Shown here: positions 7,798 through 40,308 of the stretch, piece after piece
Layout of the letters: every line of letters begins with the position of its first letter
Position numbering within the stretch: position 1 is the first letter of the stretch
Virus record (IMG/VR): IMGVR_UViG_3300035180_001680
DNA from: a virus
Lineage: Duplodnaviria; Caudoviricetes
Length of the DNA stretch: 64,000 bases
Reading direction: 5' to 3' (one strand)
Program-made: the position numbers and the translations under genes
Notes under the pieces: model-generated
Database searches by the model: none
The model's input: only the letters and a program-made list of their open reading frames with translations
Told to the model about the DNA's origin: nothing

Positions 7798-8199
7798 ATG
7801 TCCGATATGAAAAAAGTTTGGCGTGTTGAAAATTCCAAAGGTGTTGGAATGTACAACTGGGGAACCACAGCCCTAAATCACATGGGAGGGGGAAAACGAC
7901 ATCCTGGTCCATCTTCTGTAAATCAAAATACTGATTTTGGTATTAGTTATTTTTTTGACTATATTCTTTCAGCAAAAGAAGTCCGTAATTGGAAGTTTGG
8001 CTTTGCTTCTTTGGAACAAGCGAAACGTTGGATTTACAGTGCACAGATTCGTAGGCTACTTCGCAACGAGGGGCACTTACTGAACTGCTATGAAGTTCCA
8101 AAAGATTCATTTCACAAAAGTTATCACCAAGCCATATTCGATAGTTCCAAAGCAAAACTAATCGAGACAAGATGTGTTACGTTTTGGGATGAACGTTGA
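7798..8199 (+). CDS. hypothetical protein, possibly ADP-ribosyltransferase-like fold
   Basis: VWRVE...HPGP...FGFASLEQAKRW pattern; the ORF is secure, the fold call is weak. Confidence 0.6.
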   Translation: MSDMKKVWRVENSKGVGMYNWGTTALNHMGGGKRHPGPSSVNQNTDFGISYFFDYILSAKEVRNWKFGFASLEQAKRWIYSAQIRRLLRNEGHLLNCYEVPKDSFHKSYHQAIFDSSKAKLIETRCVTFWDER

Positions 8200-8250
8200 T
8201 GTAACAAGTGTGAAGAGGACTCGAGAAAAAGTCAATGGTATATTAGTACT

Positions 8251-8350
8251 GTTGACTTTTATTTTGTGTTCTAAAACTTGACTTGTATACCTCTCCCCTG
8301 AATCTTGATTTCATAAAGACATTATACCTCAAACTGTCCCAAAAGTCAAC
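8251..8350 (-). repeat. Element copy A (promoter plus short transcript-like core)
   Basis: 8285-8350 is identical to 9431-9496 (66 bp); minus strand reads TTGACT-17-TATAAT. Confidence 0.9.
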
Positions 8351-8413
8351 TGTTGACTCTTTACCTCAAATGTTGGACAATGTCCTCATTGAATAATTCA
8401 ACTGGAGATAGAA

Positions 8414-8665
8414 ATGTTCGCTACTAAACAAGACTTCACTGATGTACTCAAAAACAATGTGTGTCGTGTTGTCTTTCGTAAGAAGGATAGTTCCGAACGT
8501 GTGATGTACTGCACTCTTCAACACAACGTCATTGAAAGTAATGGGTTGACTCCTAATGGAACTGGTCCTATCGTTCCTGACAATCAGGTTCGTTGTATCG
8601 ATACTAACCTTATGGAGTGGAGAAGTTTCAACATCGATACTGTACTTCAGTTTGAGGTGGTGTAG
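8414..8665 (+). CDS. WYL_2/DUF2693-like Sm/SH3 beta-barrel protein
   Basis: VVFRKKDSSERVMYCTL...DTNLMEWRSF pattern; GGAG RBS. Confidence 0.7.
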   Translation: MFATKQDFTDVLKNNVCRVVFRKKDSSERVMYCTLQHNVIESNGLTPNGTGPIVPDNQVRCIDTNLMEWRSFNIDTVLQFEVV

Positions 8666-9378
8666 TAGACAGACACTACTGTTTACTAGTAAGCAACTTT
8701 CAAAAATAATCACTTTCAGAACCTATCTCATTTTATTTTTCACATATCTGAATCCTCTCTCTTCAGATAGCTCTTTAAGGGGAAGCATCATGCTTCCCCT
8801 CTTTTTTGAGCGTAGCACTCACTCCAAACACAAAGACACAAAGATGTACACATAACACAAATGGGAAGATAATTGACTACCCAGCAGCAAGGAATGCTAC
8901 CAATTATAGACATTCATACAACACACAGCAGTGTCTGAAACGTACAACAGTATTGTATTGGGTTGATGATTACTGAATGAGGGTAAGTGTACTCAATGTA
9001 TTGAACTGATTATTCAACCACACCAACAATTATGAAGTGTGTACCTTTATTCTGTCTACTTGGTAAAGGGAAACGTGATACCCGACACACATGGGTAAAC
9101 ATGGAAGGTTGGGTTGTTGGGTACAATGAGAGACGGTATGGTAAGACAGTGTTCACATACTGAATGTAATCACTGTGGTGAACAACCTACAAAGAGAGCA
9201 AAAATTTGGACCCTTTTCAGTTATAATCAAAGTTATATACCTATAACTTTTACTGATCAACACGAGTTCTTATCAAATTTGTGTATCTCCCGATCAGGTT
9301 TACTTATCACGACGGGGGGTTGAAAAATGTGGGGTGGGGTGAGTAAGTGAGGTGAGATTAGAGTGGTCTTGTTTGAAA

Positions 9379-9496
9379 GTCAACTGTTGATCTTTTTATT
9401 TTTCGTTAAAACTGACCTGTACTCGAGATCGTATACCTCTCCCCTGAATCTTGATTTCATAAAGACATTATACCTCAAACTGTCCCAAAAGTCAAC
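9379..9496 (-). repeat. Element copy B
   Basis: 9431-9496 equals copy A core; 9379-9424 is the exact reverse complement of 9862-9907. Confidence 0.9.
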
Positions 9497-9560
9497 AGTT
9501 GACTTTTTCTTAAAAGGGTAATACAATATCTTTTCTAAAACGTTATAAAGAGAGAAAGAA

Positions 9561-9755
9561 ATGACAGTACTACAACTGATCAAGTCTCTGATGTCTGTCG
9601 AAGACAAATCCATTAATGTAATTATTACGGTTGAGTCGGGGTTGAGTTGTTTATCTTCAAGTGATGTGTTCGGTCAAGAAACATACAGAGAAGATGAAAA
9701 TGGTGAGTCGTATAACGTTTTTGTTATCGAAGGTGAAGAGACAAGTTTCGAGTAA
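9561..9755 (+). CDS. hypothetical protein
   Basis: Follows promoter 9499-9527; lies between copies B and C. Confidence 0.6.
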   Translation: MTVLQLIKSLMSVEDKSINVIITVESGLSCLSSSDVFGQETYREDENGESYNVFVIEGEETSFE

Positions 9756-9791
9756 TTATCTTTAAAGAAAAAGTCAACGATGAAATGTTCG

Positions 9792-9907
9792 TTGACTTTT
9801 TCCCCTTTTAGAGAGATAATGTACTCGAAATCAGGAATTCAGGGGAGAGGTATGGAGTTTAGAGTACAGGTCAGTTTTAACGAAAAATAAAAAGATCAAC
9901 AGTTGAC
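9792..9907 (+). repeat. Element copy C (points toward the C-free cassette)
   Basis: TTGACT 9792-9797, 17 bp, GATAAT 9815-9820; 9811-9885 is an inverted repeat of 11769-11843 with 1 mismatch. Confidence 0.9.
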
Positions 9908-10026
9908 TTCTTTAAGTTCTTGGTGTTCGAATTTCAAAACATACTCTATACAAAAAGTCAACTGATTAATTCTGAAACATACTTTATACAAAAAGTCAAC
10001 TTTTATTAATTAAAATAGATGGGGTA

Positions 10027-10054
10027 TTGTGTTTTTGTGTGGGTGTGGTAGAAT
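10027..10054 (+). promoter_or_regulatory. C-free extended -10 promoter (TTGTGT...TGG TAGAAT)
   Basis: Near-identical copy at 11401-11429 with a 17-bp spacer; a third TAGAAT at 10129-10134. Confidence 0.65.
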
Positions 10055-10182
10055 GGGGGTGTGGTGTGTAGGGGGTGTAAAGTATTGTTTTTAGTGAGAA
10101 AGTTGTGGAGTTTTTTGAAAGTTTGTAGTAGAATGTTTGTGTTGTTGAGAGAGAAGTTAATTTGATTTTTAGGAGAGTGAAA

Positions 10183-10755
10183 ATGTTGAAAATGATTAAT
10201 AATGAAATGAATGTGGGTTTTGATGAATTAGTTAATGTGTTTGTTAGTAAGTTTGAAGAAAAGTTGTATGTAAAGAAAGAGAGTTTGAGTAAGAGTATTA
10301 AAGAAGTAAAGAGTAATGTTGAAAAGTTGAAAAAAGAAGTATTGGGTAAAGTTAATTTGAGTAAGTATGAAATTGTTATTGATGTATTAGGTTTGAAATG
10401 TAAAGTTAATAAAGATAGTATAAGTGTTTATTTTAGTGAAGATAGAAAGAAAAGTAGTTATATTGATTTTGTTGTTTATATGTATGATGTAAATGATAAG
10501 AGTTTGGGGTATTGTGTTAATAGTAAGAGAATTAATGTTGATATAGATGTTGATGATGTTGTTGAATATGAGAGTTATATTAGTGAATTAAATAAGTTGA
10601 ATGAAGAATTAATTGAAGTGGTAAATGAAATAAAGAGTATTAGTAGAAAGGAAAGGAGTATTAGGAGTAAGATTAGTGAAATGAAATTGAAAGAGTGTGG
10701 TTTAGAAGAATTGTTGGGAAATGATGAAATAATGAAATTGATTGAATTGAAATAA
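10183..10755 (+). CDS. C-free gene 1, coiled-coil protein (190 aa; no Ala/Pro/Thr/Gln/His)
   Basis: AGGAG RBS at 10171-10175, ATG at 10183, long open frame. Confidence 0.85.
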   Translation: MLKMINNEMNVGFDELVNVFVSKFEEKLYVKKESLSKSIKEVKSNVEKLKKEVLGKVNLSKYEIVIDVLGLKCKVNKDSISVYFSEDRKKSSYIDFVVYMYDVNDKSLGYCVNSKRINVDIDVDDVVEYESYISELNKLNEELIEVVNEIKSISRKERSIRSKISEMKLKECGLEELLGNDEIMKLIELK

Positions 10756-10806
10756 AATAGAATTGTGGTGGTTAGGGAGTTTTTTAATTATATAGAGGAT
10801 TAAAAA

Positions 10807-11388
10807 ATGAGTAATGAAATGGTTTATGTTATTAATGTGAATAATGAATTTGTTTTGGAATGTAAAAAAGTATTGATTGAAGATGTTGTTGATGTGTTTT
10901 ATAGTAGAGAAGAAATGAAAGAAATGGGATGGAGATATAGAGATGTGAGTTTAAAAAAAGGTAGAATTAAAGAGTATTTAAATGGTTTAGTAAAAGAAAT
11001 GAAAGATAGTGGAAAAAAGAGTATTAAATTGAGTAGTTTGTTTGTTGGTGTTTGTAAGAGTTATGGTTTAAAGATTAGTGAATATGTTGAAGGTGTGAGG
11101 AGATTAAATAATAAGTTGTTTTTGTATGAAAAGAAAAAGAATAGTTATAGTAAAAGAGATGTAATTAATTTTGTGGATATGGGAGTAATGTTAATAAGAA
11201 AGAAGTATGGGATTGAATTAGATATAAAGAATGTGAGTTATAGTTATGATGGTTGTGTGAAAGTTGTAAAAGATTTGATTAGTTTATATGAATTGTGTAG
11301 TTATAAAGGAAGTAGGTTTATAGTGGAAAAAGAATGGATTGAAATGATTTATAATAAAGAAGGGGAATTGTTTAAGAAGAAAGAATGA
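10807..11388 (+). CDS. C-free gene 2 (193 aa; no Ala/Pro/Thr/Gln/His)
   Basis: GAGGA RBS, ATG, long open frame. Confidence 0.85.
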   Translation: MSNEMVYVINVNNEFVLECKKVLIEDVVDVFYSREEMKEMGWRYRDVSLKKGRIKEYLNGLVKEMKDSGKKSIKLSSLFVGVCKSYGLKISEYVEGVRRLNNKLFLYEKKKNSYSKRDVINFVDMGVMLIRKKYGIELDIKNVSYSYDGCVKVVKDLISLYELCSYKGSRFIVEKEWIEMIYNKEGELFKKKE

Positions 11389-11400
11389 AATAAAAAGTTG

Positions 11401-11429
11401 TTGTGTTTTTTGTGTGGGTGTGGTAGAAT
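11401..11429 (+). promoter_or_regulatory. C-free promoter, second copy
   Basis: TTGTGT-17-TAGAAT with TG extension, preceded by AAAAAGTTG as in normal promoters of this region. Confidence 0.7.
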
Positions 11430-11448
11430 AGTGGTGTTGATAATATGA

Positions 11449-11691
11449 ATGGAAAAAGAAATGAAAGTTGAAATTATTAGTGTTATGTTTGAAGATAATA
11501 TTAGTAATTTTTGTGGTGGAGGTTTTTGTAAAGTTGAATGTAGTGGAGAGAATATTGAAGATTGTGTAGTGAATGATTATTATAAAGGAGATTGTGAATT
11601 TGATTTAGATATAGATTTAAGATATAAGGTAGAAGAAGATGTTTATTATTTGAGAAATAGAGAGAGATTGTTAATTATTAAAATAATTTAA
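11449..11691 (+). CDS. C-free gene 3 (80 aa, acidic, Cys-rich)
   Basis: Follows promoter 11401-11429; open frame. Confidence 0.7.
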   Translation: MEKEMKVEIISVMFEDNISNFCGGGFCKVECSGENIEDCVVNDYYKGDCEFDLDIDLRYKVEEDVYYLRNRERLLIIKII

Positions 11692-11708
11692 AAAGTTGTT
11701 GACTTTTT

Positions 11709-11740
11709 AAAAATGACCTGACCTAAGTCAAGTCATTTTT
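11709..11740. terminator. bidirectional intrinsic terminator closing the C-free cassette
   Basis: AAAAATGAC-C-TGAC ctaa GTCA-A-GTCATTTTT hairpin with A/T tails. Confidence 0.65.
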
Positions 11741-11754
11741 TATTTTTATAAAAG

Positions 11755-11862
11755 TTGACTTTTATTCATTTCGTTAAAACTGACCTGTTCTCTAAACTCC
11801 ATACCTCTCCCCTGAATTCCTGATTTCGAGTACATTATCTCTCTTTTTGACCCTAAAGTCAA
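11755..11862 (-). repeat. Element copy D (points toward the C-free cassette)
   Basis: Minus strand reads TTGACT-17-GATAAT; 75-bp inverted repeat with copy C. Confidence 0.9.
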
Positions 11863-12089
11863 CAGTTGACCAAATCCCCTAATTCAGATACAATGTCCTC
11901 ATTGAAATCAAAAATTATGTTTCATTTGGAGTAAATGGTATCATCTGTGTCGGTTCCGGCACCTGCCCTGAAATTGAGGGCACCGAAGAAGTTTTGGAAT
12001 ACATTGAAAGAATTTGTAACTAATTGTTGTCCTCAACCACAGTTTGTGTGACAATGGTCTCACTGAAACGTTAATTGAAAGGAAACAAA

Positions 12090-12518
12090 ATGACCAACAC
12101 CAAGACCTCCAAGAAATCGATTTTCATTTCCGCTTTCAACGCCCTGCCCGTTGACATGAAGCGCAAAGAAGCTCTTGCAATTCTCAGTGAACAATGTGGC
12201 CTTTCGATGGCAGGTGCAAGTACTTATTACGCCAACTGCAAGAGTGGTCTGTGGTCAACTGGAACTGTTCAAAAAGAATCGTATCTTGAAATGATCGCTT
12301 TGGTCACTGGTGAATATATTGCAAAGCATCGTGCAAAAGAACAGGCCAACAGGGCCGTTCAAAGTGTCACACAAAAATCTGAAAAGATCAACCTTGAAGT
12401 GATGACCGGTTCCGAACTGGTTGCTTTGTACAACAGTAAGGTCAGCGATGCCCAACAGATCGTCAAGTTCCGCAACAAGGCTGAAGGAATTAAACGAGTT
12501 GCCGCCCTTATCGGCTGA
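12090..12518 (+). CDS. two-domain hypothetical protein with N-terminal LSMAGASTYYANCK domain
   Basis: AAAGGA RBS; follows promoter 12027-12055. Confidence 0.75.
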   Translation: MTNTKTSKKSIFISAFNALPVDMKRKEALAILSEQCGLSMAGASTYYANCKSGLWSTGTVQKESYLEMIALVTGEYIAKHRAKEQANRAVQSVTQKSEKINLEVMTGSELVALYNSKVSDAQQIVKFRNKAEGIKRVAALIG

Positions 12519-12593
12519 AACTTTGAAATAAGTGTTGACATCTTATCTATAATAGGGTAAGATGTCTTCACTGTAACGAGAAAGAGATGAGCA

Positions 12594-12902
12594 ATGTCCA
12601 ATATAACTTTTCATAAAGAAGTTCGTACCATTTGTAGTAACTATGGTTGGGATGTTTACAGTACATACAACGACAAGGGTGTGACCCATCGAAGGGTATC
12701 GTATTCGAGGGTACCATATTTGAAGGTACCGTATTCGAAGTTCAATTGTAATGTTCCTGAAAAGATCAAGGCACATATCAAACAAGAAGTTGAACAACTG
12801 TTGTCCAATCATGGAGTGACTGGTCAAGTGTATTGGTTTGAGGCTCATTCGTATTATGGTAATGGACCCTACGACAAACTTTGTATCAAGATTCCTTTGT
12901 AG
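12594..12902 (+). CDS. hypothetical protein
   Basis: Follows promoter 12535-12563; hairpin at 12918-12945 downstream. Confidence 0.7.
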   Translation: MSNITFHKEVRTICSNYGWDVYSTYNDKGVTHRRVSYSRVPYLKVPYSKFNCNVPEKIKAHIKQEVEQLLSNHGVTGQVYWFEAHSYYGNGPYDKLCIKIPL

Positions 12903-13037
12903 ATAGTTACAATGGCGAAGGTGCTCTATGGTGATAGGGCACCTTTGAAATAAAATTAAACAGTTGACTTTGCTATGCGTATGATGTATAATATATGTGT
13001 ATTAGGGGAGGGATGATTTTTTCCAATTTAAGTTGGT

Positions 13038-13188
13038 CCAATCTATCATTAACTATCTTCCAATCTATCATTAATCATTCTCCAATCCAATCCAATCCAA
13101 TCCAATCTATCATTAACTATCTTCCAATCTATCATTAACTATCTTCCAATCTATCATTAATCATTCTCCAATCTATCATTAACTATCA
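13038..13188. repeat. Tandem 22-bp repeat array (six units plus a CCAAT x4 insert); candidate origin iterons
   Basis: Units CCAATCTATCATTAACTATCTT / CCAATCTATCATTAATCATTCT start at 13038, 13060, 13102, 13124, 13146, 13168; no G on the + strand from 13037 to 13210. Confidence 0.9.
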
Positions 13189-13340
13189 CCCCACAATTAT
13201 TTTCCAACCCGCGTCACGATTTTTTTGTCACCCTAAAATAAACACCGCACTGTTTTTCCCATATGTGCAAAAATTTTTTGGCAAATTTTTTTCCCAAAAT
13301 CCAAAATTGTTTATAATCAACAGTTGACATATTCCCCTCT

Positions 13341-13595
13341 ATGAGATATAATATGCTTCATCTCATGCGTTATAGGGAAAATGTAAATGTACACAATACG
13401 TGTATCACCTTTTTTCACATATTAGGTGCTCTCATGATGGGAACGATTTGGGGAGGTATAGTATCTCTATTTGTTCTGTTTGTTAGTGGAAACGAACAAC
13501 TCTTCTTTAAGAGGACTCTATACTTGATGGGAATTGGTGCAGTGGTATCACTCTTGGTATATTTAACCGCAAATGGTGTATTGGTTTGGACATAA
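13341..13595 (+). CDS. small membrane protein
   Basis: Two hydrophobic segments; true start probably internal. Confidence 0.55.
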   Translation: MRYNMLHLMRYRENVNVHNTCITFFHILGALMMGTIWGGIVSLFVLFVSGNEQLFFKRTLYLMGIGAVVSLLVYLTANGVLVWT

Positions 13596-13788
13596 GGAGA
13601 TATTAATATGTGGCTACCAAATTGGATTTATAATAAACTCCCAATGATTTATTTCATATTGGGATGTTGTTGTACATTGTTTACTCCAAATGTATTTGGA
13701 TACTTTTCAGGAGGTATATTCTTTTTGATTTGTTCATTGATTGTATACCTCCGTTTTAATAACAGATACGAAGAATAGGAGAAGTAGA

Positions 13789-14133
13789 ATGAAAACAGCT
13801 AAAGAGTTAAGAGAACTTGCCGATAATAGTGAAAGTAGGATAAAAAAAATTCTTGATGAACTTGAAGCAAAGATGGTTGAACGAGCTGAAAAGGGATTTG
13901 TGAATTTGGAATGTAACTTTTCGATTTTTGGAATTCCATTTTTTGAATCCGAATCAGTGCGTTATGTTCCTGAACCTAATCCAACCGCAGCATTGGTGAT
14001 GGATAGATTAAGAAAGTTGGGGTATGAAGTATCGTGGAGAAATATTCATGCTGATTATGTTCCTCGTGGACTTATGAATGATTTTGAAGAGGGTCCAAAA
14101 TTTCAAACGTGGATATGGGTAATTTCTTGGTAA
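13789..14133 (+). CDS. hypothetical protein
   Basis: AGGAG RBS, start MKTAKEL. Confidence 0.7.
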   Translation: MKTAKELRELADNSESRIKKILDELEAKMVERAEKGFVNLECNFSIFGIPFFESESVRYVPEPNPTAALVMDRLRKLGYEVSWRNIHADYVPRGLMNDFEEGPKFQTWIWVISW

Positions 14134-14428
14134 ACAATCAACAAATTGAATAACTTATGGAACTGGTGGTTGGAAGTCCGTTAAATAACGTCCAATCGAC
14201 GATGAACTATTGAATTCTATATTGCCCGGTTTGTCTACAACAGGTTCAAAACTAATAATCTACATTGGGAATACACAAAAAGATTTTATCACATGATAAA
14301 AAATCGGAATGAAACTTTCTTGATTTTTTAGAGTCTAACTTTATGCCACCCCGGCATATAGTAAAACCAATAAACATATCTTAACCTTTTAACATGTTAT
14401 TATAAATATTATTAATAGTTATGTTTAA

Positions 14429-14749
14429 TTGGGTAAAGAAATGTATATAATCGAACTTGTAAAAGATGGGGACGTAATTGGCCTTGGTATGATAGAGAAG
14501 GGGAACATTTATTCATGGACAGCCCCAACACAAAGTGGTTATCAATATTGTTCTAAATTCCACGATAAAGGACGTGCATTAAAGGCTGCTGCAAAGATTG
14601 AGGCGAAGTATCATGCTTCCAAAAAAACATCTTTCAAAGAATACGTAGCGGATCGTGTCAAAGCAGAAGTTGTTCCTGAATTCGGTGGACCAACGAGAGG
14701 TGAAAAGGGTTCCGTTGGTGAGAAGAAAAAAGATAAAATTCGGAGATAG
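14429..14749 (+). CDS. hypothetical protein (late promoter TATAAATA at 14401)
   Basis: Open frame after a late promoter motif. Confidence 0.6.
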   Translation: MGKEMYIIELVKDGDVIGLGMIEKGNIYSWTAPTQSGYQYCSKFHDKGRALKAAAKIEAKYHASKKTSFKEYVADRVKAEVVPEFGGPTRGEKGSVGEKKKDKIRR

Positions 14750-14805
14750 TAGTTGAACGTTTAATGTTTTTATGGTAATATGATTTTACCTTATAAGGAG
14801 TTTAC

Positions 14806-15660
14806 ATGTTTCGAATTTATCGTTCTCGTCGTTACTATTGGTCTTGTTCAAAGTTCGCTGACTGGTTCCGGAGAACTTTTTCTAATATTCCCAAATTACA
14901 TTCTGGAACTTCTACTCAATGGAAAGAATGGAAAAAAGCTGCTAAAGATGACAACCAATTCGTGTATTGGTTTACGGAAGAATTCCTCAATAAAGCACAA
15001 AACTTTTTTATGTTCCCGTATGATGTATGGGATGGTTTTCGTGTTTACGTTCGCAATCGCTATATTAGTAAAACTCACCTTGTTTCAACACATCTTAAAA
15101 AAGGTGAATGGCACGAGACCGAAGAGGTGTTACTTCACAGCATGTTTGAACTTCTTGTCGATTTCGTTGAAATTGAACAGGCAAGCATGGCTTTGTGGAA
15201 TGAAGAAAACCGAAAAGAATACAAGAGCAAGACTCCTTGGTGGAATAGGTCTTTAACATATAGGTTTGGTCAATGGCGCTCCAGGGAATTAGGAATTAAA
15301 TCACTTGAATGGGCAATGACTCTAAAACATGGTGATGGAGATTACTTACCAGAAACAGACTCAAGGTTCGGTACGCCAACGAATCATGCAAAAGCCGCAT
15401 GTGAAATTATGGATTTATATATTTGGTGGAAAGATGTTCGTCCCGTTCGTCCGACACCAGATGAGCTTTCTGGTAGAACGGAAGCGTTTAAAAATCGTTT
15501 TGACAACACAGAAGATTTATGGGATATCTTGGATAGAGTGCAAACTAAAGAAGAAAAGGATATGTATGAAGTTTCTAGTCGCATCGAAATTGCCCAACAC
15601 GAAGAAGATACAGATATGATGGTTCGTTTAATTAAAGTTCGTTCGGACATGTGGACATAA
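14806..15660 (+). CDS. hypothetical Trp-rich protein
   Basis: TAAGGAG RBS, 284 aa. Confidence 0.8.
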   Translation: MFRIYRSRRYYWSCSKFADWFRRTFSNIPKLHSGTSTQWKEWKKAAKDDNQFVYWFTEEFLNKAQNFFMFPYDVWDGFRVYVRNRYISKTHLVSTHLKKGEWHETEEVLLHSMFELLVDFVEIEQASMALWNEENRKEYKSKTPWWNRSLTYRFGQWRSRELGIKSLEWAMTLKHGDGDYLPETDSRFGTPTNHAKAACEIMDLYIWWKDVRPVRPTPDELSGRTEAFKNRFDNTEDLWDILDRVQTKEEKDMYEVSSRIEIAQHEEDTDMMVRLIKVRSDMWT

Positions 15661-23526: not shown

Positions 23527-24111
23527 ATGGAAACAGTTATACACGAAATACCTTGGAGGCATGCACTAACAGACAGCTTTTTAAGCAATAGTGAATATGA
23601 TGTTGTTGTGGATTACGTAAAAACACTGCTATCTTTTTTGCCGGTGACTGAAGGATATAAAGAATTTTTAGATGACAGTTGTAATACCGAAATTAGCAAT
23701 ATCCTGTGTCCGAAAGTATATCAACTTAGAGATACCTTATTTGATACACTAAATTTCGGCGGGAAAGTTCTCCCTCAAGTTCAATACTCTAATTGTGAGT
23801 TGGTAATATCACCAGCGGGATACCGGTATGGAACTATTCACGAAGAAGGGAAACGAAAATTGATGACTTCCGTATTGTATTTGTATCCTCAGGAAGGTGA
23901 TGGTACAGAGATTTATAAAACTAACAACAAGGATTCATATTTTACAACAATTCCATGGAAACCAGACAGACTGTTGTCTTTTGTTGGTCAAAGGAATCCA
24001 GTGTACCAACGGACATGGCACGACTACGGTAATTCTAAATCATTTCATAGAGTTACTATCAATATGATATTGAGTGAAAATAATCATGGGAATAAAAGGA
24101 CAAGGCAATGA
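23527..24111 (+). CDS. 2OG-Fe(II) oxygenase superfamily protein
   Basis: IHEE...KLMTSVLYL...GT...PWKPDRLLSF...TWHDY...RVTINM pattern. Confidence 0.65.
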   Translation: METVIHEIPWRHALTDSFLSNSEYDVVVDYVKTLLSFLPVTEGYKEFLDDSCNTEISNILCPKVYQLRDTLFDTLNFGGKVLPQVQYSNCELVISPAGYRYGTIHEEGKRKLMTSVLYLYPQEGDGTEIYKTNNKDSYFTTIPWKPDRLLSFVGQRNPVYQRTWHDYGNSKSFHRVTINMILSENNHGNKRTRQ

Positions 24112-24706
24112 CACTGCAGGCACCAAGTGCAGAAACCAACATGATTCTATGATGGAAGGTAACGTTCTAGGGTCAGGACCCTCCCGTAAATCATATATCC
24201 CAAACGATCTACCCTCTATTGGTTGTAATTTTCCCTGGACACGCGTAAACTGGACAATAATATTTGATGAGCCGGTTATTGATAAGTTAGTGGAACAACC
24301 TAACTTGATTTCAATAGAAACAAAACTAATTCTTCATTCGAGACTTGTTCCTCATCTAACAGTCAACCATTACACAAGTATGCTTCGACCAAGAATTGAC
24401 TCTATATTCAGTTTTACAAGAATTGAAGAGAAACAGTATTACATTAGTTCTGGTCATTACGCAGCATTATGGATGATTAACAAAGGATTTAACAAACTTA
24501 ATCTATATGGAATGGATAATTACTTCGGTGATTTAGTGTGTGGAGATAACTATACACACATTCAAGGAACACAACACTACCTACCTAATACGGTTAAGGA
24601 TAAATACTCCGAACAACAGATATTAGCAAGAGGTCATCATTGGAAAGACGGATGGGACTTGATCCAAAAACAACATTCACACGTAGAGTTTAATTTTGTT
24701 AGATAA
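24074..24706 (+). CDS. GT29/MAF-like (sialyltransferase-like fold) protein
   Basis: VLGSGPS...IGCN...SSGHYAALW...LNLYGMD; probable start 24149. Confidence 0.55.
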   Translation: MKIIMGIKGQGNDTAGTKCRNQHDSMMEGNVLGSGPSRKSYIPNDLPSIGCNFPWTRVNWTIIFDEPVIDKLVEQPNLISIETKLILHSRLVPHLTVNHYTSMLRPRIDSIFSFTRIEEKQYYISSGHYAALWMINKGFNKLNLYGMDNYFGDLVCGDNYTHIQGTQHYLPNTVKDKYSEQQILARGHHWKDGWDLIQKQHSHVEFNFVR

Positions 24707-25400
24707 TCCTAAAACAATTATCGTGTCATATCCAAATGCAGGAAGAACTTGGCTCAAGCAAATGACGGATATGCTAGATACGGGTATTATGTATTCTCAC
24801 CAAGGATCCCAACACCGTAACCAACTAACTGCCAGCGAAATTATTCAGTTTCTTCAACAATACCCCGATCGATTTGTAGATAGCAAAATCATACTTCTAC
24901 ACCGTGATATTAAAGACCATCTGGTATCAAATTATTTTCAAACAATATATCGTGTTGGTATCAAACTTGCTTTGTCCGAATTTCTCCGTCATCCTTCTCA
25001 CGGCGTTGAGAAATTAGTCCGTTTTAATTTGTTTTGGAAACAGTTTTCAGGAGCCGAAAAGATTGGAACGGTAAAGTATGATACAATGCGGTTGAATCCT
25101 TCAGAATACTTAGTTCAACTTATCCACTTTTTTGATATACCTATTGATGAAACTAGGATTCCTGAGGTAGTTGACTATTGTTCGTTTGAAAGAATGAAAG
25201 ATAGAGAAACAAAGAGAGAAGGTTGGCAGTACTACTATCAGTACACTACACTTGATAATCCGGAATCATTCAAGTGTCGCAGGGGTAAAGTTGGAGGATA
25301 CGTCGATTATTTATCACCAGAAGATATACAATACTGTGATGCTATCACAGAACAATACAATTATACTGGACTGATGAATGACGATACCATTGGTAATTGA
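24696..25400 (+). CDS. sulfotransferase family protein
   Basis: PAPS-binding loop SYPNAGRTWL, ILLHRDIKD, C-terminal RRGKVGGY. Confidence 0.85.
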   Translation: MLDNPKTIIVSYPNAGRTWLKQMTDMLDTGIMYSHQGSQHRNQLTASEIIQFLQQYPDRFVDSKIILLHRDIKDHLVSNYFQTIYRVGIKLALSEFLRHPSHGVEKLVRFNLFWKQFSGAEKIGTVKYDTMRLNPSEYLVQLIHFFDIPIDETRIPEVVDYCSFERMKDRETKREGWQYYYQYTTLDNPESFKCRRGKVGGYVDYLSPEDIQYCDAITEQYNYTGLMNDDTIGN

Positions 25401-26325
25401 AAGGGCAGTTGTTGAAATTAATGGCGGATGTAACTATAAATGTCAGATGTGTCCTCAATCAATCGGACGAGAAAAACAATTCCTCAAAACGATCCCACTT
25501 ACTGAGTTTGAGAGGGTCGTTGCAGAGTTGTCACAATATGGTCTCAAACTTGTCAATCTTGAAGGCTCAGGTGAACCAACACTACAAAATAACCTTGATG
25601 AATATATCAAGGTAGTTACAAAATACGGGGCTAAACCATTTATATACACTAATGGGTTCCGGATGAAAGGTGATTTGATGAAACGGTGTGTTGATGCCGG
25701 ACTCGCATTTTGTCGGTTCTCTGTTATTGGATACAGTAGAGAGAAATACCGTGAATGGATGAAGGCAGATAACTTTGAAATAATCGTTGAGAACGCTGGG
25801 GCAATGAATGAATATGCTCAGGGTTCTACAACAGTCGCTTCATATCATCTCATCCTAGGGTCCGATACCGATTATGAAATTGACCAATATGTAACAAACT
25901 TCATAACTCCTGCACGGACCCAGGCAGAGATATGGAAAATGCACAATTGGTCTGGAGTCTATGACAATCCAACTAAGCGTATGGGCAACAGAAAAACTTG
26001 TGGCAGGCCCTTTGCTCCTGAAATAACAATCCGTGCCGGCGGCCCTAATAAACTATCAGTTGCACCATGTTGCCAGACACTCGGTCAAGACACCATCGCG
26101 GTTCTTGGAAATCTAACAACTCAAACTGTTGAACAAATATGGAATGGTCAACCATACGAACAACTTAGACAAGCACATAGTGAAAAAATGTTTGATAGTA
26201 TTCCCTATTGCAGTAAGTGTGACTTTCTGTATGATGACCAATCTGTTCTCGTTTATTCAAACACAAATACTAAATTATTCACTATGAACGGAACCACATT
26301 CTCTCTTGATGACTTCAGAAACTAA
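25378..26325 (+). CDS. radical SAM/SPASM protein
   Basis: CNYKCQMC motif, GSGEPTL, C-terminal C...CC...LGNL...IWN...CSKC. Confidence 0.9.
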   Translation: MTIPLVIERAVVEINGGCNYKCQMCPQSIGREKQFLKTIPLTEFERVVAELSQYGLKLVNLEGSGEPTLQNNLDEYIKVVTKYGAKPFIYTNGFRMKGDLMKRCVDAGLAFCRFSVIGYSREKYREWMKADNFEIIVENAGAMNEYAQGSTTVASYHLILGSDTDYEIDQYVTNFITPARTQAEIWKMHNWSGVYDNPTKRMGNRKTCGRPFAPEITIRAGGPNKLSVAPCCQTLGQDTIAVLGNLTTQTVEQIWNGQPYEQLRQAHSEKMFDSIPYCSKCDFLYDDQSVLVYSNTNTKLFTMNGTTFSLDDFRN

Positions 26326-26357: not shown

Positions 26358-27380
26358 TCACCCAACAAAGTGTTCGACGATAAACCAATGGTCTTCAAAC
26401 ATGTTTTCACCCTGCAATGCTCCCAAGGGAACCCACATTGCTTTTTCAGCGTCATCATCACCCTTAACCTTTGGTAGTGGACCTGGTGGTAATTCTATGA
26501 AAAAAGCATGAGAAATAGTTCTACCTCGCAAACTTCGGTTAGGGTCATCAAACACTTTCATACCTTTAATGTTTCCCCGAAGTACAGGTATTGGAACTTT
26601 AATTTTTGTTTCTTCACGTAGTTCTCTCAACATTGCATCTTCTAAACGTTCGTTTTGGTTAATGAACCCACCCGGAAGTGCCAACAAACCTTTTCCTGGA
26701 GATGAACGACGTTTAATCAACAAAACGTGTCCTGACTGAACAACGACAGCATCTGTGGTAACGAATGTCGGAGGATATGGAGCTGGTAACCAAGCTTTGT
26801 GATATTTTTTGATATATTCGTAGTCTTCCGAAAGTATAGTAAATTCAGGTGTTGACTTAAATAATTCAAGTTTTGCATAAACTGGCTCGGGAACGAGTGC
26901 TTGAAGGAATTTAAGATTTTTGCCCTCAAAGTAAAGTTCACGAAGATCAGTTGCATTAACATCTTCGTTTAATTCATGTTCCACTGGACTCCACTGTGGG
27001 AACATCTTAAGGTAATACGAACTTTCGTCTTTATCATATCCGATGATTGCAATCTTTGGACGGTCTAACCAAAACTCTCCAAGCATAGCCTCACTAACAG
27101 CTTCTTGGACTGCAGTAGTCCACTTTTGGTCGCTTGGTTGGTCGTTGACTTTGGTAATTTTGATTCGGTCTAAATTTCCACCAAAATCCTGACTTATAAT
27201 CATTGCTGCACGCTCTGAAGCAGTCCAAGGATTTTTTGGAGTTCGAGACGAATTTGCGCTACCAATAATAACAATTAGTTTGGTAGCAATTGACAAAGCT
27301 GTTTCAAATACTTGTTTGTGTCCAATGTGGAATGGTTGAAACCGTCCAATAAACACAGCATAATCGTACTGTTTTTGCAT
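26358..27380 (-). CDS. nadM: bifunctional NMN adenylyltransferase / NUDIX ADP-ribose pyrophosphatase
   Basis: FIGRFQPFHIGH and NUDIX box GGFINQNERLEDAMLRELREET; start MQKQY after GGAG. Confidence 0.92.
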   Translation of the reverse strand: MQKQYDYAVFIGRFQPFHIGHKQVFETALSIATKLIVIIGSANSSRTPKNPWTASERAAMIISQDFGGNLDRIKITKVNDQPSDQKWTTAVQEAVSEAMLGEFWLDRPKIAIIGYDKDESSYYLKMFPQWSPVEHELNEDVNATDLRELYFEGKNLKFLQALVPEPVYAKLELFKSTPEFTILSEDYEYIKKYHKAWLPAPYPPTFVTTDAVVVQSGHVLLIKRRSSPGKGLLALPGGFINQNERLEDAMLRELREETKIKVPIPVLRGNIKGMKVFDDPNRSLRGRTISHAFFIELPPGPLPKVKGDDDAEKAMWVPLGALQGENMFEDHWFIVEHFVG

Positions 27381-27503
27381 AGAAAACTCCTTTCTATATG
27401 TTGAGCATCTCTGTCTTTCAGAGATGTTTATATTTATACAACAGTTTACTGTTGACGTCAACTAATTTTACTATATACTAAAGATTAATTTAAAGAAGAC
27501 GAT

Positions 27504-28040
27504 ATGTTATCGTATAAAGAGAATAAAAAACTTACTGTTATAAATTTGTTTGGGGGTCCTTGTACAGGGAAGAGTGCAACTGCAATGTCTCTTTCAGCAA
27601 AGATGAAAATTGAAGGTTATTTGGTTGATTATGTCCCGGAAGTCGCAAAAGACATGACTTGGGAACGAAGACATCATATGTTAACAGAGCAAGATTACAT
27701 TTTTGCAAAACAACACACACGAATTCGTCGGTTGGTTGGACAGGTGGACTACGCTGTGTGTGATAGTCCTATTATACTTGGCTTAATGTATGCTCCAGAT
27801 GATTTTCCAGCATCATTCAAACCATTTGTGTTAGATACATTTAGTTCATATAATAATATTAATATCTTATTACGTAGAACAGTTCAATATGATCCAGTTG
27901 GAAGGAATCAAACTTTAGAAGAAGCAGTTGAGATAGATAGAGATGTTGAGCATTTTTTACTCATTAATAACATACCTTTTTCTGTTTTGGATGTAGACGA
28001 ACAGATAATTAATAACATTGAATCACTTTTGTTTGAATAA
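27504..28040 (+). CDS. NadR-like P-loop kinase/ATPase (AAA_28)
   Basis: GGPCTGKS, VPEVAK, VCDSPI. Confidence 0.75.
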   Translation: MLSYKENKKLTVINLFGGPCTGKSATAMSLSAKMKIEGYLVDYVPEVAKDMTWERRHHMLTEQDYIFAKQHTRIRRLVGQVDYAVCDSPIILGLMYAPDDFPASFKPFVLDTFSSYNNINILLRRTVQYDPVGRNQTLEEAVEIDRDVEHFLLINNIPFSVLDVDEQIINNIESLLFE

Positions 28041-28065
28041 ATACTCCATAACCTGGAGAATAAAA

Positions 28066-28470
28066 ATGACATTTACCAAAGAAAACTTTTCTGCACAACA
28101 TATATATCACCCTGGAAATAATCCTTTGTGGTGGCCGATATGGGCGATATTTGGAAATGATAATGATGGGTGGTATGGTGATTCAGATTGGAATCCAACA
28201 AGAAATACATCTTTTATGACAGCAGTTAAATGGTGGTTTAGAAATCCTTTTCATAACTTGGTGTTTGCAGTTGTCGGCTGGTGTTGGGTTGATAGAACGT
28301 GGTATAAATGGACAGTTGGAAATTGGACCTTTGCATTAACTAAGTATGGAAAGTTGCCTCCTATCTTTCCATTCGTTGGTTATGAAAAATTGGGATTTAT
28401 TAAGGGATATATTGGTTGGCGGGGTGGAGCCTTTGGGTTAAAGCTTCGAAAGAATTCCGGACAGACGTAA
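28066..28470 (+). CDS. Trp-rich hypothetical phage protein
   Basis: WWFRNPFHN; GGAG RBS. Confidence 0.7.
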   Translation: MTFTKENFSAQHIYHPGNNPLWWPIWAIFGNDNDGWYGDSDWNPTRNTSFMTAVKWWFRNPFHNLVFAVVGWCWVDRTWYKWTVGNWTFALTKYGKLPPIFPFVGYEKLGFIKGYIGWRGGAFGLKLRKNSGQT

Positions 28471-28495
28471 AATAAGGGCTCGAAAGCCCTTATTT
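28470..28495. terminator. bidirectional terminator
   Basis: AAATAAGGGCT cgaa AGCCCTTATTT. Confidence 0.8.
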
Positions 28496-28501
28496 AACTA
28501 A

Positions 28502-28687
28502 TTACAATATTTCAACAGTTGCTCCTGAAAGTTTTCCAATTGATTGTGGTTCTGCAGAATCTGTCATATTAGTTTCAACATCAAAGGTTACCCTAAGGGC
28601 GGTATGTCCTTGGTGAACTCTAATATAATCCGCAATTGCTCTACTAATTTGTTGAGTTGATAATTTTATTAATTTGTCTTCATTCAT
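28502..28687 (-). CDS. hypothetical protein
   Basis: Overlaps the stop of the Tad2-like gene. Confidence 0.55.
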   Translation of the reverse strand: MNEDKLIKLSTQQISRAIADYIRVHQGHTALRVTFDVETNMTDSAEPQSIGKLSGATVEIL

Positions 28688-28954
28688 TTATGTTCTCCAT
28701 GATTTCCCAATTAGTTGCTAATATATCAATTTGAGTTATCGTCCAAGTACTAATAGTTCCAGATGGTGTCCGTACGTCAATGTGCGGAAGATAATCAATT
28801 GTTGTTCCTTCTGGGTAAATTCCTAACAAAGGTGGGCGGTTTACTTGAAAAGTGCTTCCATACACCAAGAATATAAACATTCCAGTTCCCCTCCAAACCT
28901 CTCTTCTTGCTTTTTTCCATCTTTAATTTCTAAAAGTATCTGACTAAAATCCAC
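28680..28954 (-). CDS. DUF2829/Tad2-like protein, joined only by a -1 frameshift
   Basis: GAGGAG RBS, GTG at 28954 gives MDFSQILLEIKDGKK; after A_AAA_AAG the -1 frame gives ARREVWRGTGMFIFLV...STWTITQIDILATNWEI. Confidence 0.75.
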
Positions 28955-29031
28955 ATTTCACTCCTCAATTGTTTATTTAATACAGAAGATTATATTGTAT
29001 AATATAATTAAACATAGTTCAAGAGGAATAG

Positions 29032-29265
29032 ATGAAATATTATGCGGGGATAGGGTCAAGAGAAACACCAACTCAAATGCTTAAAGATATGACAACGTTT
29101 GCTACATTACTCCGTTTAGGGGGATACACATTAAGGAGTGGTGCCGCACCAGGTGCAGATGCAGCAACAGGTGTAGCACCAAACGAATACCGTTCGGGTA
29201 TAGAGGGAACGCATTGTGTTTTGGATATTACTCGAGAAGGTGAAGAGTATATTGTCCATTTTTAG
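29032..29265 (+). pseudogene. truncated SLOG/DprA-like Rossmann protein
   Basis: YAGIGSRETP...LRSGAAPGADAA, then unrelated sequence and TAG. Confidence 0.6.
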
Positions 29266-29498
29266 TTCAAAGTATGGAATGCAAACCGACGTGTTTGGGC
29301 GCCCAGGTTCGAAGTTCAAACTTGGACCTCAAAATATTACCAGAGGTCACGCAGTTATGGTATTTGATTGGCAGAAGAGGCCGGGGGTTGTTTAAAATTA
29401 TTTAACCTTCTGTTGACTTTAGACTAAATAATAGTATGATAAATTATCAAGTGAAGCGACAGACGTTTCATTATCAATAACCAGATAAGGAGCTTATC

Positions 29499-29756
29499 AT
29501 GGAAAAACAAAATAAAGTTACACCTCAGTTTGTTGAATTTCTTAGACGCACAGTAGAACAAAAGCGTTTAGACGCTGGTTATAGTGGTTCATGGGGTGAC
29601 AATGGAGCTAGTGATTTAGAAGTTCAAATCGAAATCTATTTTCATGGAATGGTAAATAGTTTCCCGCATCAATGGGACGACTACTATAAAGCATACATGA
29701 AAGAAACAGACCCAGAATATGAGAAATATTTGGAATTGAAAGAAAGATTTGAGTAG
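29499..29756 (+). CDS. hypothetical protein
   Basis: TAAGGAG RBS. Confidence 0.7.
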   Translation: MEKQNKVTPQFVEFLRRTVEQKRLDAGYSGSWGDNGASDLEVQIEIYFHGMVNSFPHQWDDYYKAYMKETDPEYEKYLELKERFE

Positions 29757-29838
29757 TTGATTTTTTGAAGTAACTGCAGTAACGTAATAAAAATTGATTC
29801 GATAGACGAATCAATCAATCTTTGATAAGGAGTTTATC

Positions 29839-39544: not shown

Positions 39545-39703
39545 GAGGTCATGTGAGAATCGTTGGACGTATGATATTGGGTTCATTAATAACAATGGGG
39601 GTTTCCTTTTTCTTTTGGTCCCAGTTTGGTATATTGATCACTATTCTGTGGTCAGGGTCAGCATTCTACCTTGGTGAACTTTAGATGGCAGTATGGATAA
39701 GGA

Positions 39704-40126: not shown

Positions 40127-40137
40127 AAGGAAAAATA

Positions 40138-40308
40138 ATGATAGCTCAATTTGCAGAACTCACAAGGGCATACCTTGAACCTCACCGACATTACCATACC
40201 CTTGATCACATTATTCGTATGTTGAATACAATTCGTGATCATAAGCTGGATGCAACCAAGGGATTGTTTGGACATCTTCTGAGCACGCATATCAAGCTGC
40301 GAAGCTGA
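40138..40308 (+). pseudogene. HD-type phosphohydrolase N-terminal fragment
   Basis: AYLEPHRHYHTLDHI, then truncation. Confidence 0.65.

Follow-up and report, generated by a model that had tools for sequence, protein, structure and literature searches.

Avoidance of particular words or letters in nucleic acids has several precedents. Messenger RNAs that lack the word ACA, whether natural or engineered as in the single-protein-production system, resist MazF. Phages avoid restriction sites and palindromes, both genome-wide and in the regions that enter the cell first, such as the T7 ocr region and the first-step-transfer DNA of T5. G-less and C-less cassettes are synthetic constructs for in-vitro transcription. 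In the hyperplastic regions of T4-type phages, Arbiol, Comeau and Krisch are said to have described in 2010 a modular shuffling by promoter-early-stem-loop (PeSL) elements, and genetic repeats of intense nucleotide skew (GRINS) in Actinobacteria reportedly involve repeats and gene conversion and are ascribed to mutation. Finally, Rho reads CC and UC dinucleotides, and its avoidance shapes gene composition, including a purine bias in bacteria with runaway transcription (PMC13323073). Our literature searches found no published description of an operon equivalent to the C-free one reported here, in agreement with a preliminary description of this DNA, which knew of none either.

The window, i.e., the whole stretch of phage DNA that was analyzed, comprises 64,000 nt (64 kb) and belongs to a genome of at least 338 kb. 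From 10001 to 11702 its + strand contains A 645, T 611, G 446 and C 0 by base count, with C on both sides (10000 and 11703). A recount thereby confirmed what the preliminary description had stated about the missing base and its sharp, not graded, borders: the runner-up C-free run in the window measures 60 nt, and C reaches at least 10.7% in all other genes tested within the window. At the C frequency of the window (16.7%) the chance of a C-free run of 1,702 nt is ~1e-135, and at an assumed 10% C we obtained 1.3e-78, compared with the ~1e-78 given before. C is the sole missing base, T shows no excess (35.9%), and the absence of C extends beyond the three ORFs to the promoters, the UTRs and the gaps between genes. 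Guanine is missing from the template strand, and the antisense RNA is C-rich and unstructured. Because C is missing from one strand, G:C-containing palindromes are impossible in this tract, as they are in the C-free tract of a distant relative (L006); the sense-strand ACA count of 0 and the impossibility of UACAU, GCU and ACY are likewise trivial consequences. The remainder of the window outside the tract is not site-free. The tract and its features are as follows:

10001..11702, + strand: C-free tract (base count), conserved as 1,707 nt in relatives L001/L002.
10027..10054, + strand: promoter P1, C-free, TTGTGT, 16-nt spacer, TGG-TAGAAT (read from sequence).
10103..10134, + strand: promoter P2, C-free, -10 TAGAAT at 10129-10134 (repeat).
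10183..10755, + strand: ORF1, 190 aa, coiled-coil-like, AGGAG at 10171-10175 (ORF list).
10807..11388, + strand: ORF2, 193 aa, alpha/beta plus helical predicted fold (ORF list, model).
11401..11429, + strand: promoter P3, C-free, TTGTGT-17-TAGAAT with TGG preceding the -10 (sequence and repeat).
11449..11691, + strand: ORF3, 80 aa (76 aa from ATG 11461), acidic, five Cys (ORF list).
11709..11740, unstranded: bidirectional intrinsic terminator hairpin (folding energy).

Like a C-less cassette, the tract could be fully transcribed with three NTPs, but such cassettes are man-made, non-coding and a few hundred bases long, whereas the tract is natural, spans 1.7 kb and encodes three proteins. With GRINS it shares intense strand skew inside genes, and it differs in having no repeat basis, in the totality of the exclusion and in its signatures of selection. 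The likeness to ACA-less mRNAs is that a message would evade an endoribonuclease by missing its word, at a cost in codon choice; here, however, a whole letter is absent instead of a word of 3-5 nt, five amino acids are lost, and non-coding sequence is included.

An artefact of assembly, bisulfite-type conversion or synthesis is suggested by the start of the tract at exactly position 10001 of the window, which itself falls on a grid of 32,000-nt steps, and from which a planted or synthetic insert was suspected. The tract is, however, present in Logan contigs from four runs of four separate metagenome studies, with contigs spanning both borders, as well as in one JGI contig, and a diverged form occurs in two further data sets; the independent runs exclude a planted insert. 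In the likely source run, cassette depth equals flank depth. Conversion by bisulfite or a deaminase was rejected on the lack of a T excess, the intact frames and an amino-acid make-up that is not of the C-to-T type. As far as contigs can show, an artefact is already refuted, and we assign it a negligible probability. Close DNA relatives were not found among cultured phages, a tblastn search of phage records with a normal-composition family member gave no match, and the cassette region is missing from the closest virus record (36 kb).

The tract lies within a larger module, delimited by these elements:

9791..11753, + strand: accessory module, absent from the dominant strain of one microbial-mat metagenome (skipping joint).
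9792..9820, + strand: sigma-70-type promoter TTGACT-17-GATAAT, toward the cassette (sequence motif).
9810..9900, unstranded: left arm of a 91-nt inverted repeat, 92% complementary.
9930..10001, + strand: two direct repeats of 34 nt each, terminating in AAAAAGTCAAC (repeat search).
11754..11844, unstranded: right arm of the 91-nt inverted repeat (repeat search).
11834..11862, - strand: convergent sigma-70-type promoter TTGACT-17-GATAAT, directed at the cassette (sequence motif).

The skipping joint (9790->11754) omits 1,963 nt with a 10-nt overlap, GTTGACTTTT, and has a depth of 352.9 in run X3 and 10.4 in run X2; in run X3 the cassette itself stands at ~34 and its flanks at ~353. The two arms of the inverted repeat have a perfect 28-mer in common, a third copy of the element lies at 9377-9449, and related phages bear the same element beside their own cassettes. 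The promoter at 9792..9820 is missing in L001, though the cassette is kept. The cassette is an accessory unit that comes and goes as a block; it is situated between repeated elements that bear promoters, in a hyperplastic region of early genes. This arrangement recalls PeSL shuffling in its small early ORFan genes between repeated promoter elements, its presence/absence variation among strains and its recombination at a repeated -35 word. PeSL accounts for movement of the module but not for the missing C, and the repeat element here differs in having no significant stem-loop, its folding being no more stable than that of shuffled sequence (z +1.2). An early-type, presence/absence-polymorphic module with fast-evolving proteins fits a role in host interaction.

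The left border of the tract is the final C (10000) of the direct repeats. On the right, C returns 6 nt upstream of the terminator hairpin, after the last stop codon; the hairpin folds with -13.4 kcal/mol on the + strand (z -3.6), where a U run follows, and with -18.2 kcal/mol on the - strand (z -6.2). In the L005/L006 lineage the first C falls within the 3' arm of the equivalent hairpin, and the tract end thus coincides with a terminator in two lineages. Among the promoters, P1 and P3 are related by a 31-nt repeat with 94% identity; L001 has lost the P1 -10 through a 20-nt deletion and carries a perfect TATAAT as the P2 -10, and L006 has a P2-like element upstream of its first gene. The motifs TAGTATAAT and TTAGGGTGA showed no enrichment as a promoter class across the window, and Rfam searches of 8000-15000 returned chance hits below threshold only. 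One RNA-library contig spans 11414-11630, over ORF3, and is a weak sign of transcription; it includes promoter P3 and may reflect read-through or DNA carry-over. Taken together, these features make the tract a self-contained transcription unit that occurs naturally in a jumbo phage.

Ala, His, Pro, Gln and Thr (A, H, P, Q and T) are absent from all three ORF products, Ser, Arg and Leu come close to proportional representation, and the content of Phe and Trp is low. Residues conserved in the family are replaced in the tract (T by S, A by V or C, H by Y, K or N, P by E, S or N), and in a fragment of a C-using homologue, TCA, CGT and CAA stand at codons that read AGT, AGR and AGT in the window. 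These comparisons indicate recoding, not decay. The three intact ORFs of the preliminary description withstood closer inspection: at tract composition stop codons have a frequency of 12.3% per codon, which puts the probability of either long open frame (190 and 193 codons) at ~1e-11. Since UTRs, gaps and promoters are C-free, as had been claimed, and conserved residues are overridden, the constraint acts on the nucleic acid and not on the protein.

The same data bear on a mutational origin, in which C would be lost faster than it is gained, either because the displaced sense strand undergoes transcription-coupled deamination or through a cytosine deaminase that acts on single strands. Such an origin would suit a strand-specific effect bounded by a transcription unit, and the extreme G skew would presumably promote R-loops. 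However, there is no surplus of T, Phe and Trp are scarce, the codons that retain Ser, Arg and Leu (AGT, AGR and TTR) cannot result from C-to-T change, and both long frames are intact despite 12% stop codons. Promoter DNA upstream of the start is C-free as well, and the context rule and alanine ban of the relatives, described below, are no deamination signature. We therefore regard a mutational origin as very improbable.

Comparison with the close relative L001 (~3.4% diverged), which like L002 retains the tract at 1,707 nt, reveals 57 substitutions within the tract, 0/57 of which involve C, compared with 67/155 (43%) in the flank. The chance of this outcome is ~1e-8 if half of the C-bearing differences in the flank are taken as C gains. 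The pattern indicates purifying selection on the nucleic acid that removes every sense-strand cytosine.

Searches with the proteins gave no lead, by family, by fold or in the defense libraries covered, for the earlier proposal that they are antidotes. Pfam and PHROGs returned nothing significant for ORF1-3 and family members, profile searches against PDB sequences gave no match, and an ESM Atlas feature search gave no usable match. The alignment-based model of ORF2, whose family has 40 cluster representatives, reached a pLDDT of 92.6, and the single-sequence fold was poor (pLDDT 38). Against PDB, AFDB, BFVD and Atlas with Foldseek and with VIA-align, the model had no match above Z 4.7, and its best structural match (Z 4.7) was a small winged-helix/R3H-like subdomain covering residues 49-108. 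In complex prediction of ORF2 with ORF1, the control scored higher than the pair. When viral contigs were scanned with ORF1 and with ORF2 singly, no relatives emerged, word-index protein searches recovered near-identical copies and an 86-97% relative only, and a degenerate pattern for a C-containing ORF1 homologue (run X6) matched nothing in metagenome or viral contigs.

ORF1 and ORF2 form a conserved neighboring pair in large uncultured phages, with ORF1 homologues adjoining ORF2 homologues in all lineages examined. A comparison of C content among homologues, proposed in the preliminary description, had a divided outcome: the majority use C normally, but depleted lineages exist at 0, 2, 5-7 and 9-10% C. 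The C-free tract of L006 (1,536 nt) encodes proteins only 32-43% identical to those of the window; family member P0042 is without A, H, P, Q and T, and in P0032 those residues make up 2.9%. The C-free state has probably been maintained over the long term or evolved repeatedly. Where the pair has 5-7% C, its own flank has 25%, with a sharp step between them, and in several lineages the depletion is evidently confined to the ORF1/ORF2 pair.

In the clade with 5-10% C, GC and CG together number 0 and 1, compared with 9.8 and 18.7 expected from codon shuffling (0/2,000 shuffles as low), and the proteins have no alanine (GCN) but do contain H, P, Q and T. In C-tolerant relatives, G and C are depleted up to ~5 nt apart. 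Judging by these relatives, G and C are kept apart in the ORF1/ORF2 pair. The lineage L025/L034 (~2% C) has no significant GC/CG avoidance, which counts against the explanation preferred below. Among relatives with residual C, TAC is near expectation and ACA reaches 13 compared with 8.3 expected and 25 compared with 10.8. Escape from MazF, which cuts ACA and had been put forward earlier, loses ground accordingly, and a further difference from ACA-less mRNAs emerges: the C-tolerant relatives keep ACA at or above expectation, and the avoidance is letter-wide.

Our preferred, though still tentative, explanation is that the operon has a message shaped to offer no site to a C-reading factor, most likely one that reads C with a neighboring G. 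The ban on GC/CG and alanine where C remains, in the clade with 5-10% C, supports it. We would expect this factor to be an endoribonuclease that reads sequence, of the kind seen in toxins or abortive infection; the alternative is a nuclease that attacks the sense strand of the DNA while it is exposed. We know of no RNase that reads both GC and CG. A fully C-free mRNA would be the limiting solution, with no C-containing word left, almost no secondary structure and no need for CTP. The operon could then be expressed while other messages undergo destruction, and its fast-evolving products would probably act on the host.

Several observations at the borders touch on where such a factor would read. 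The transcript-shaped borders, with the tract ending at the terminator in two lineages, and the C-free internal promoters support reading at the level of the message. The C within the terminator itself counts against the preferred explanation, as does the finding that the pair is not always under pressure, because most homologues use C normally. Upstream of the start of the first promoter, C-free DNA extends for ~60 nt in the window and for at most ~115 nt in L006, lengths that depend on the promoter chosen and on start sites that are predicted only. A constraint on RNA alone fits this upstream DNA only if P1 copies P3 and L006 has a further upstream promoter.

That untranscribed promoter DNA obeys the rule too would agree with concealment of the DNA itself, in which an island free of words with both G and C on one strand defeats DNA-cutting or -modifying enzymes; every palindrome with a G:C pair would thereby be excluded, along with the majority of restriction, type I and type IIS sites. 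The tract resembles palindrome-avoiding phages in that it cannot hold G:C palindromes, and its relatives deplete the same words: their G:C-containing 4-mer palindromes number 2 and 4 compared with 12.4 and 16.2 expected, with depletion at z -3.2 and -3.4 in L016 and L008. Moreover, the words that the relatives exclude most strictly are the self-complementary dinucleotides GC and CG, the separation of G and C to ~5 nt corresponds to the span of 4-6-bp sites, and C is back 6 nt before a hairpin whose stem requires both letters. Yet A/T-only palindromes are depleted no more than in neighboring or ordinary genes, and the rule is limited to one gene pair across phages. The island, furthermore, is internal and covers 1.7 kb of a genome of at least 338 kb, and not the whole genome or a known leading end, so that a cut elsewhere should be fatal; we saw no sign that it enters first or acts alone. 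The restriction escape proposed in the preliminary description therefore lacks a rationale unless the island acts alone, and we judge concealment of the DNA to be rather unlikely.

Three lineages at exactly zero C, at a cost of five amino acids, are what would be expected of transcription that is independent of CTP and proof against chain terminators, in which ATP, GTP and UTP suffice and expression survives CTP depletion or viperin-made ddhCTP. A constant cost per C would lead to zero rather than merely to a low level, and no C occurs until past the last stop codon. There is a precedent in print, as CTP availability has been proposed to shape the cytosine content of SARS-CoV-2 (10.1101/2020.10.26.354787). 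Nucleotide supply, however, does not predict the context rule at 5-10% C (no GC/CG, no Ala), and the claim of ddhCTP or CTP independence is weakened accordingly. C content is ordinary in the remaining early genes of the phage, and the window showed neither a viperin nor an enzyme that consumes CTP. If RNA polymerase stalled at 11703, ribosomes would, in addition, probably be kept from the stop codon of ORF3. Altogether we consider this explanation quite doubtful.

Rho avoidance in an extreme form would leave no YC at which Rho could load onto the nascent early transcript, whereas the antisense RNA, being G-free, would be an ideal target. Avoidance of Rho is known to shape gene composition, and both the published bias and the tract would involve selection on nascent RNA and a Rho-read base that is low in sense and high in antisense (PMC13323073). 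The graded depletion of C over lineages, the C-rich, unstructured antisense RNA and the convergent promoter directed at the cassette would all be accommodated. The residual C of the relatives, however, prefers the position after T, with YC accounting for 100/193 C's compared with 38% expected (p = 1.5e-4); this favors the Rho-bound UC context and is the reverse of avoidance. Unlike the published bias, the tract has no purine bias (T 36%), and its exclusion is absolute and sharply bounded rather than graded. A single isolated C makes no loading site, and still none is tolerated. Rho avoidance thus appears improbable.

Returning to the preferred reading of a message that escapes a C-reading factor, the broader proposal of a counter-defense cassette stands in part: the module is accessory, early-type, fast-evolving and under selection, but the relatives weaken the case for the particular C-targeting agents that had been named. 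A related idea, which we rate as rather unlikely, is a three-letter 'emergency' operon, whose mRNA would be immune to a cytosine-acting host weapon and whose products, ORF1/ORF2, would be its antidote. If true, its message could not be cut, chain-terminated or starved via cytosine, and the graded C content and GC/CG avoidance would trace the use of the weapon in each host lineage.

The locus demonstrates that selection on nucleic acid can override the protein alphabet, with three genes and their promoters written in three letters, using 15 amino acids, over deep divergence. The natural series of C contents (0, 2, 6, 10 and 15-30%), with its intermediate GC/CG ban, makes letter avoidance testable, and cassettes that lack a letter could serve to detect such forces and to construct expression units resistant to nucleases or nucleotide depletion. 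A reader of C beside G, in message or DNA, would be a strong force in the conflict between phage and host and may represent a new type of immunity or host shut-off.

The plus strand of the window carries no cytosine from 10001 to 11702 (A 645, T 611, G 446, C 0), with C at both 10000 and 11703, and the second-longest C-free run within the 64-kb window is 60 nt. Base counts and ORF calls agree with the preliminary description, which had reported a C-free stretch with sharp borders, three intact ORFs and flanking genes of normal C usage; the remaining window genes tested contain 10.7–25.7% C. None of the three stop codons requires C, and the tract composition predicts a stop at 12.3% of codons. 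Given that composition, frames staying open for 190 and 193 codons would each arise by chance with a probability of ~1e-11, and the ORFs of the tract are therefore real genes. Ala, His, Pro, Gln and Thr are absent from all three products. The features of the cassette and its surroundings are as follows.

Features of the C-free cassette and its borders (window positions)
10183–10755, +: ORF1, inside the tract
10807–11388, +: ORF2, inside the tract
11449–11691, +: ORF3, inside the tract; product small, acidic and Cys-rich
10027–10054, +: P1, C-free promoter-like site, TTGTGT-16-TGG-TAGAAT
−10 at 10129–10134, +: P2, C-free promoter-like site
11401–11429, +: P3, C-free promoter-like site, TTGTGT-17-TGG-TAGAAT
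11709–11740: bidirectional terminator hairpin followed by a U run; first C 6 nt upstream of the hairpin
11862–11834, −: strong convergent promoter facing the cassette from the right
9810–9900 and 11754–11844: 91-nt inverted repeat bracketing the module; third copy at 9377–9449

As the tract starts at exactly 10001 of a window cut on a 32,000-step grid, a planted insert was considered. A public-run index placed the stretch in six sequencing runs, four of which, from four studies, carry 31–99% of its words, and contigs of those runs, placed on the window, span the cassette and both borders. Contigs of one run (X1), probably the source of the window DNA, match exactly, with a depth of 106 over the cassette, similar to that of the flanks (88). 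Two microbial mat runs (X2, X3) differ by few bases, and a sediment run (X4) holds a diverged cassette copy, the same as in the metagenomic loci L001 and L002. At the level of contigs, the independent presence of the tract in runs of four studies, with both borders bridged, rejects a planted insert and answers the earlier concern about an artefact in favor of natural DNA. Chemical or enzymatic C-to-T conversion is likewise rejected, since it would produce the opposite of the observed pattern: T is not over-represented, and within the 15 usable amino acids the three products resemble the remaining proteins of the phage in composition (relative to proportional levels, Ser 0.88, Arg 0.74, Leu 0.90; low Phe and Trp). 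We regard the chance of an assembly, conversion or synthetic artefact as practically negligible.

The phage from which the window comes is very large: ORF1 and ORF2 occur on contigs of up to 338 kb. It has T4-like baseplate and fibre genes. An NAD-related set, made up of salvage genes (NAMPT, NMNAT-Nudix on the minus strand and two NAD kinases) and an AAA_28 (NadR-like) kinase (26358–31299 and 38906–42144), resembles phage NAD-reconstitution counter-defence gene sets. An adenylosuccinate-synthetase-like gene of a PurZ-type PHROG family (33026–35548) is split by an intein that carries a LAGLIDADG endonuclease domain. Among the overlapping genes immediately after the tail-fibre genes (23527–26325) are those for a sulfotransferase and for a radical SAM-SPASM enzyme. 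A cluster of PrkA/YeaG-like kinase, YeaH-like protein and SpoVR-like protein (57375–63094), the last of which has a metallophosphoesterase-like domain fused at its N-terminus, also occurs in huge uncultured phages and in Ralstonia phage RsoM2USA.

The module containing the tract is accessory and lies in a plastic early region whose neighboring genes are small ORFans. In mat run X3, depth is ~353 in the flanks vs. ~34 in the cassette, and a contig of depth 353 fuses 9790 to 11754 at a 10-nt word common to both sides (GTTGACTTTT, a promoter −35 with flank), so that the dominant strain lacks 9791–11753. In L001 the right-hand bracketing element is tandemly duplicated (L001 2300–2520) and window positions 9501–9895 are missing; thus, the flanks are rearranged between strains and the borders are fixed. 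The region is rich in strong sigma-70-type promoters (TTGACT-17-TAnAAT), many of them divergent around the palindrome AAAGTCAACnGTTGACTTT, which occurs seven times, with zero expected by chance (window 3257, 8342, 9376, 9488 and 11855, both strands). It mostly forms the −35 common to two divergent promoters and might serve as the operator of a dimeric regulator; its half-sites (GTCAAC, GTTGAC) form both tract borders. A 31-nt repeat is common to P1 and P3 (94% identical), and in L001 a 20-nt deletion has removed the −10 of P1 and the −10 of P2 is a perfect TATAAT. The predicted sense RNA is weakly structured (−16.9 kcal/mol per 200 nt vs. −40.4 elsewhere in the window), and the antisense RNA has no predicted structure. 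A wetland metatranscriptome library yielded a 234-nt contig over 11414–11630, with C-free sequence upstream of it; because it includes P3, it is at best read-through or DNA carry-over. It is a weak sign of cassette expression. A 174-nt G-free tract (13037–13210), 1.3 kb from the cassette and with a skew mirroring that of the cassette, lies directly behind a near-consensus promoter (12964–12992); it consists of 22-nt tandem units (TCCAATCTATCATTAACTATCT-like) and CCAAT repeats and has grown to 253 nt in L001 (3915–4167).

An exhaustive HMMER search with ORF2 retrieved 40 cluster representatives of ~200 aa. Ala, His, Pro, Gln and Thr together make up 13–22% of most of these, 5.7% of P0028, 2.9% of P0032 and none of P0013 and P0042. 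The DNA encoding P0013 (L005–L007, from a different sample series) forms a sharply bordered C-free tract of 1,536 nt, in which an ORF2 homologue (32% identity) precedes an ORF1 homologue (43%), an order swapped relative to the window. Its C-free promoters resemble those of the window (TTGATT or TTGTGT, 17 nt, TAGAAT), the repeat element that brackets the window module is present here too, and the first C falls in the 3' arm of a terminator hairpin. Scans with the ORF1 alignment added 29 loci, and homologues of the two genes adjoin wherever both are visible.

Sense-strand C of the ORF1–ORF2 pair
window, L001, L006: 0%
L025, L034: about 2%
L016, L026: 5–7% (flank 25%; abrupt change at the first promoter)
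L008: 9–10%
remaining loci, including contigs of 128–450 kb: 13–30%

Comparing C content among homologues, as the preliminary description had proposed, revealed other depleted lineages (0–10%), with most loci at 13–30%. Depleted lineages sit on deep branches of the protein trees. C-free members cluster together in the ORF2 tree (support 94/65), a grouping that their common odd composition could cause, and the ORF1 tree, with an unresolved backbone, requires at least two changes of C state. From the deep branching and these changes, the depleted state must be ancient or have evolved more than once. Sites conserved as T, A, H or P in normal members become S, V/C/L/I, Y/K/N or E/S/N in C-free members, indicating that the nucleotide rule overrides protein conservation. 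The 2%-C lineage has a third small, acidic, Cys-containing and C-poor gene after its ORF1 homologue (L025 797–1078), with its own TAGTATAAT promoter; it parallels ORF3 of the window. With the family alignment supplied, the ORF2 model is confident (pLDDT 92.6) and has no significant structural neighbor, the best match (Z 4.7) being a 56-residue winged-helix/R3H-like subdomain; ORF1 appears coiled-coil-like. From context, we infer that the cassette proteins may act as antidotes.

Between the window and L001, whose 1,707-nt tract has identical borders, none of the 57 aligned cassette differences involves C (A/G 41, G/T 12, A/T 4), compared with 67 of 155 in the right flank. By our own arithmetic the probability of this is ~1e-8, if roughly half of the differences with C in the flank are taken to have arisen by gaining C. 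ORF1 has a pN/pS of 0.44, ORF2 shows 22 non-synonymous vs. 1 synonymous difference, and an in-frame 21-nt insertion was also found. As judged from these alignments, the proteins evolve fast and selection maintains the tract C-free.

A clade that retains 5–10% C follows a context rule.

Partly depleted regions
L016 537–1743
L026 1345–2443
L008 211–1250

Among the residual C of L016/L026 and L008 (63 and 93 bases), G never precedes C and follows it once. The GC plus CG counts (0 and 1) compare with 9.8±2.6 and 18.7±3.4 under codon shuffling, where 0 of 2,000 shuffles were as low, and same-strand G–C depletion extends to a separation of ~5 nt. C is rarest at the third codon position. Alanine (GCN) is missing in every depleted member; His, Pro, Gln and Thr are present. 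The rule in this clade is dinucleotide-level, not letter-level; codon shuffling detected no significant GC/CG avoidance in the 2%-C lineage. Taken together, the comparisons show that selection targets the nucleic acid, is confined to the operon or gene pair and is strand-specific, with no G beside C as its strictest form in relatives and no C as its limiting form in the window. Mutational erosion of C, at odds with the codon choices, intact frames and context rule, is highly improbable.

Of two readings left, the one that we tentatively favor is a factor that would read short C-containing words in the operon message, above all C beside G; since it would act on the message, the borders would track the transcription unit and protection would be limited to one must-be-expressed operon. 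The same rule could act on DNA, where a C-free strand excludes all G:C-containing palindromes and most restriction-type words. In the partly depleted clade, 2 and 4 G:C-containing 4-mer palindromes are present vs. 12.4 and 16.2 expected; for A/T-only palindromes the depletion does not exceed that of ordinary genes. Action on DNA accounts for the C-free promoters but not for how an island of just 1.7 kb would benefit when the genome measures 338 kb or more, and we consider it unlikely. Independence from CTP supply or from ddhCTP, a lead of the preliminary description, is quite unlikely as a whole, as it predicts neither the context rule nor the special ban on alanine, although it could still account for the last step to zero C. 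Another early lead, avoidance of the MazF word ACA, is disfavored because relatives with residual C have ACA at or above expectation. Residual C is mostly preceded by T or A (YC 100 of 193 C's vs. 38% expected), and this preference for a UC context, the lack of purine bias in the tract and the intolerance of even a single isolated C make Rho avoidance (PMC13323073) very unlikely.

As the preliminary description had supposed, natural genes or operons that lack a letter were not described in the literature searched; the concepts that come closest are site-free mRNAs, composition that avoids Rho, avoidance of restriction sites and, in RNA viruses, CTP-driven loss of cytosine. New here are a whole unit of three genes that has C-free promoters, its independent environmental copies, a direct test for selection on the C-free state, the presence/absence polymorphism of the module, and a family-wide C series that exposes the GC/CG rule.
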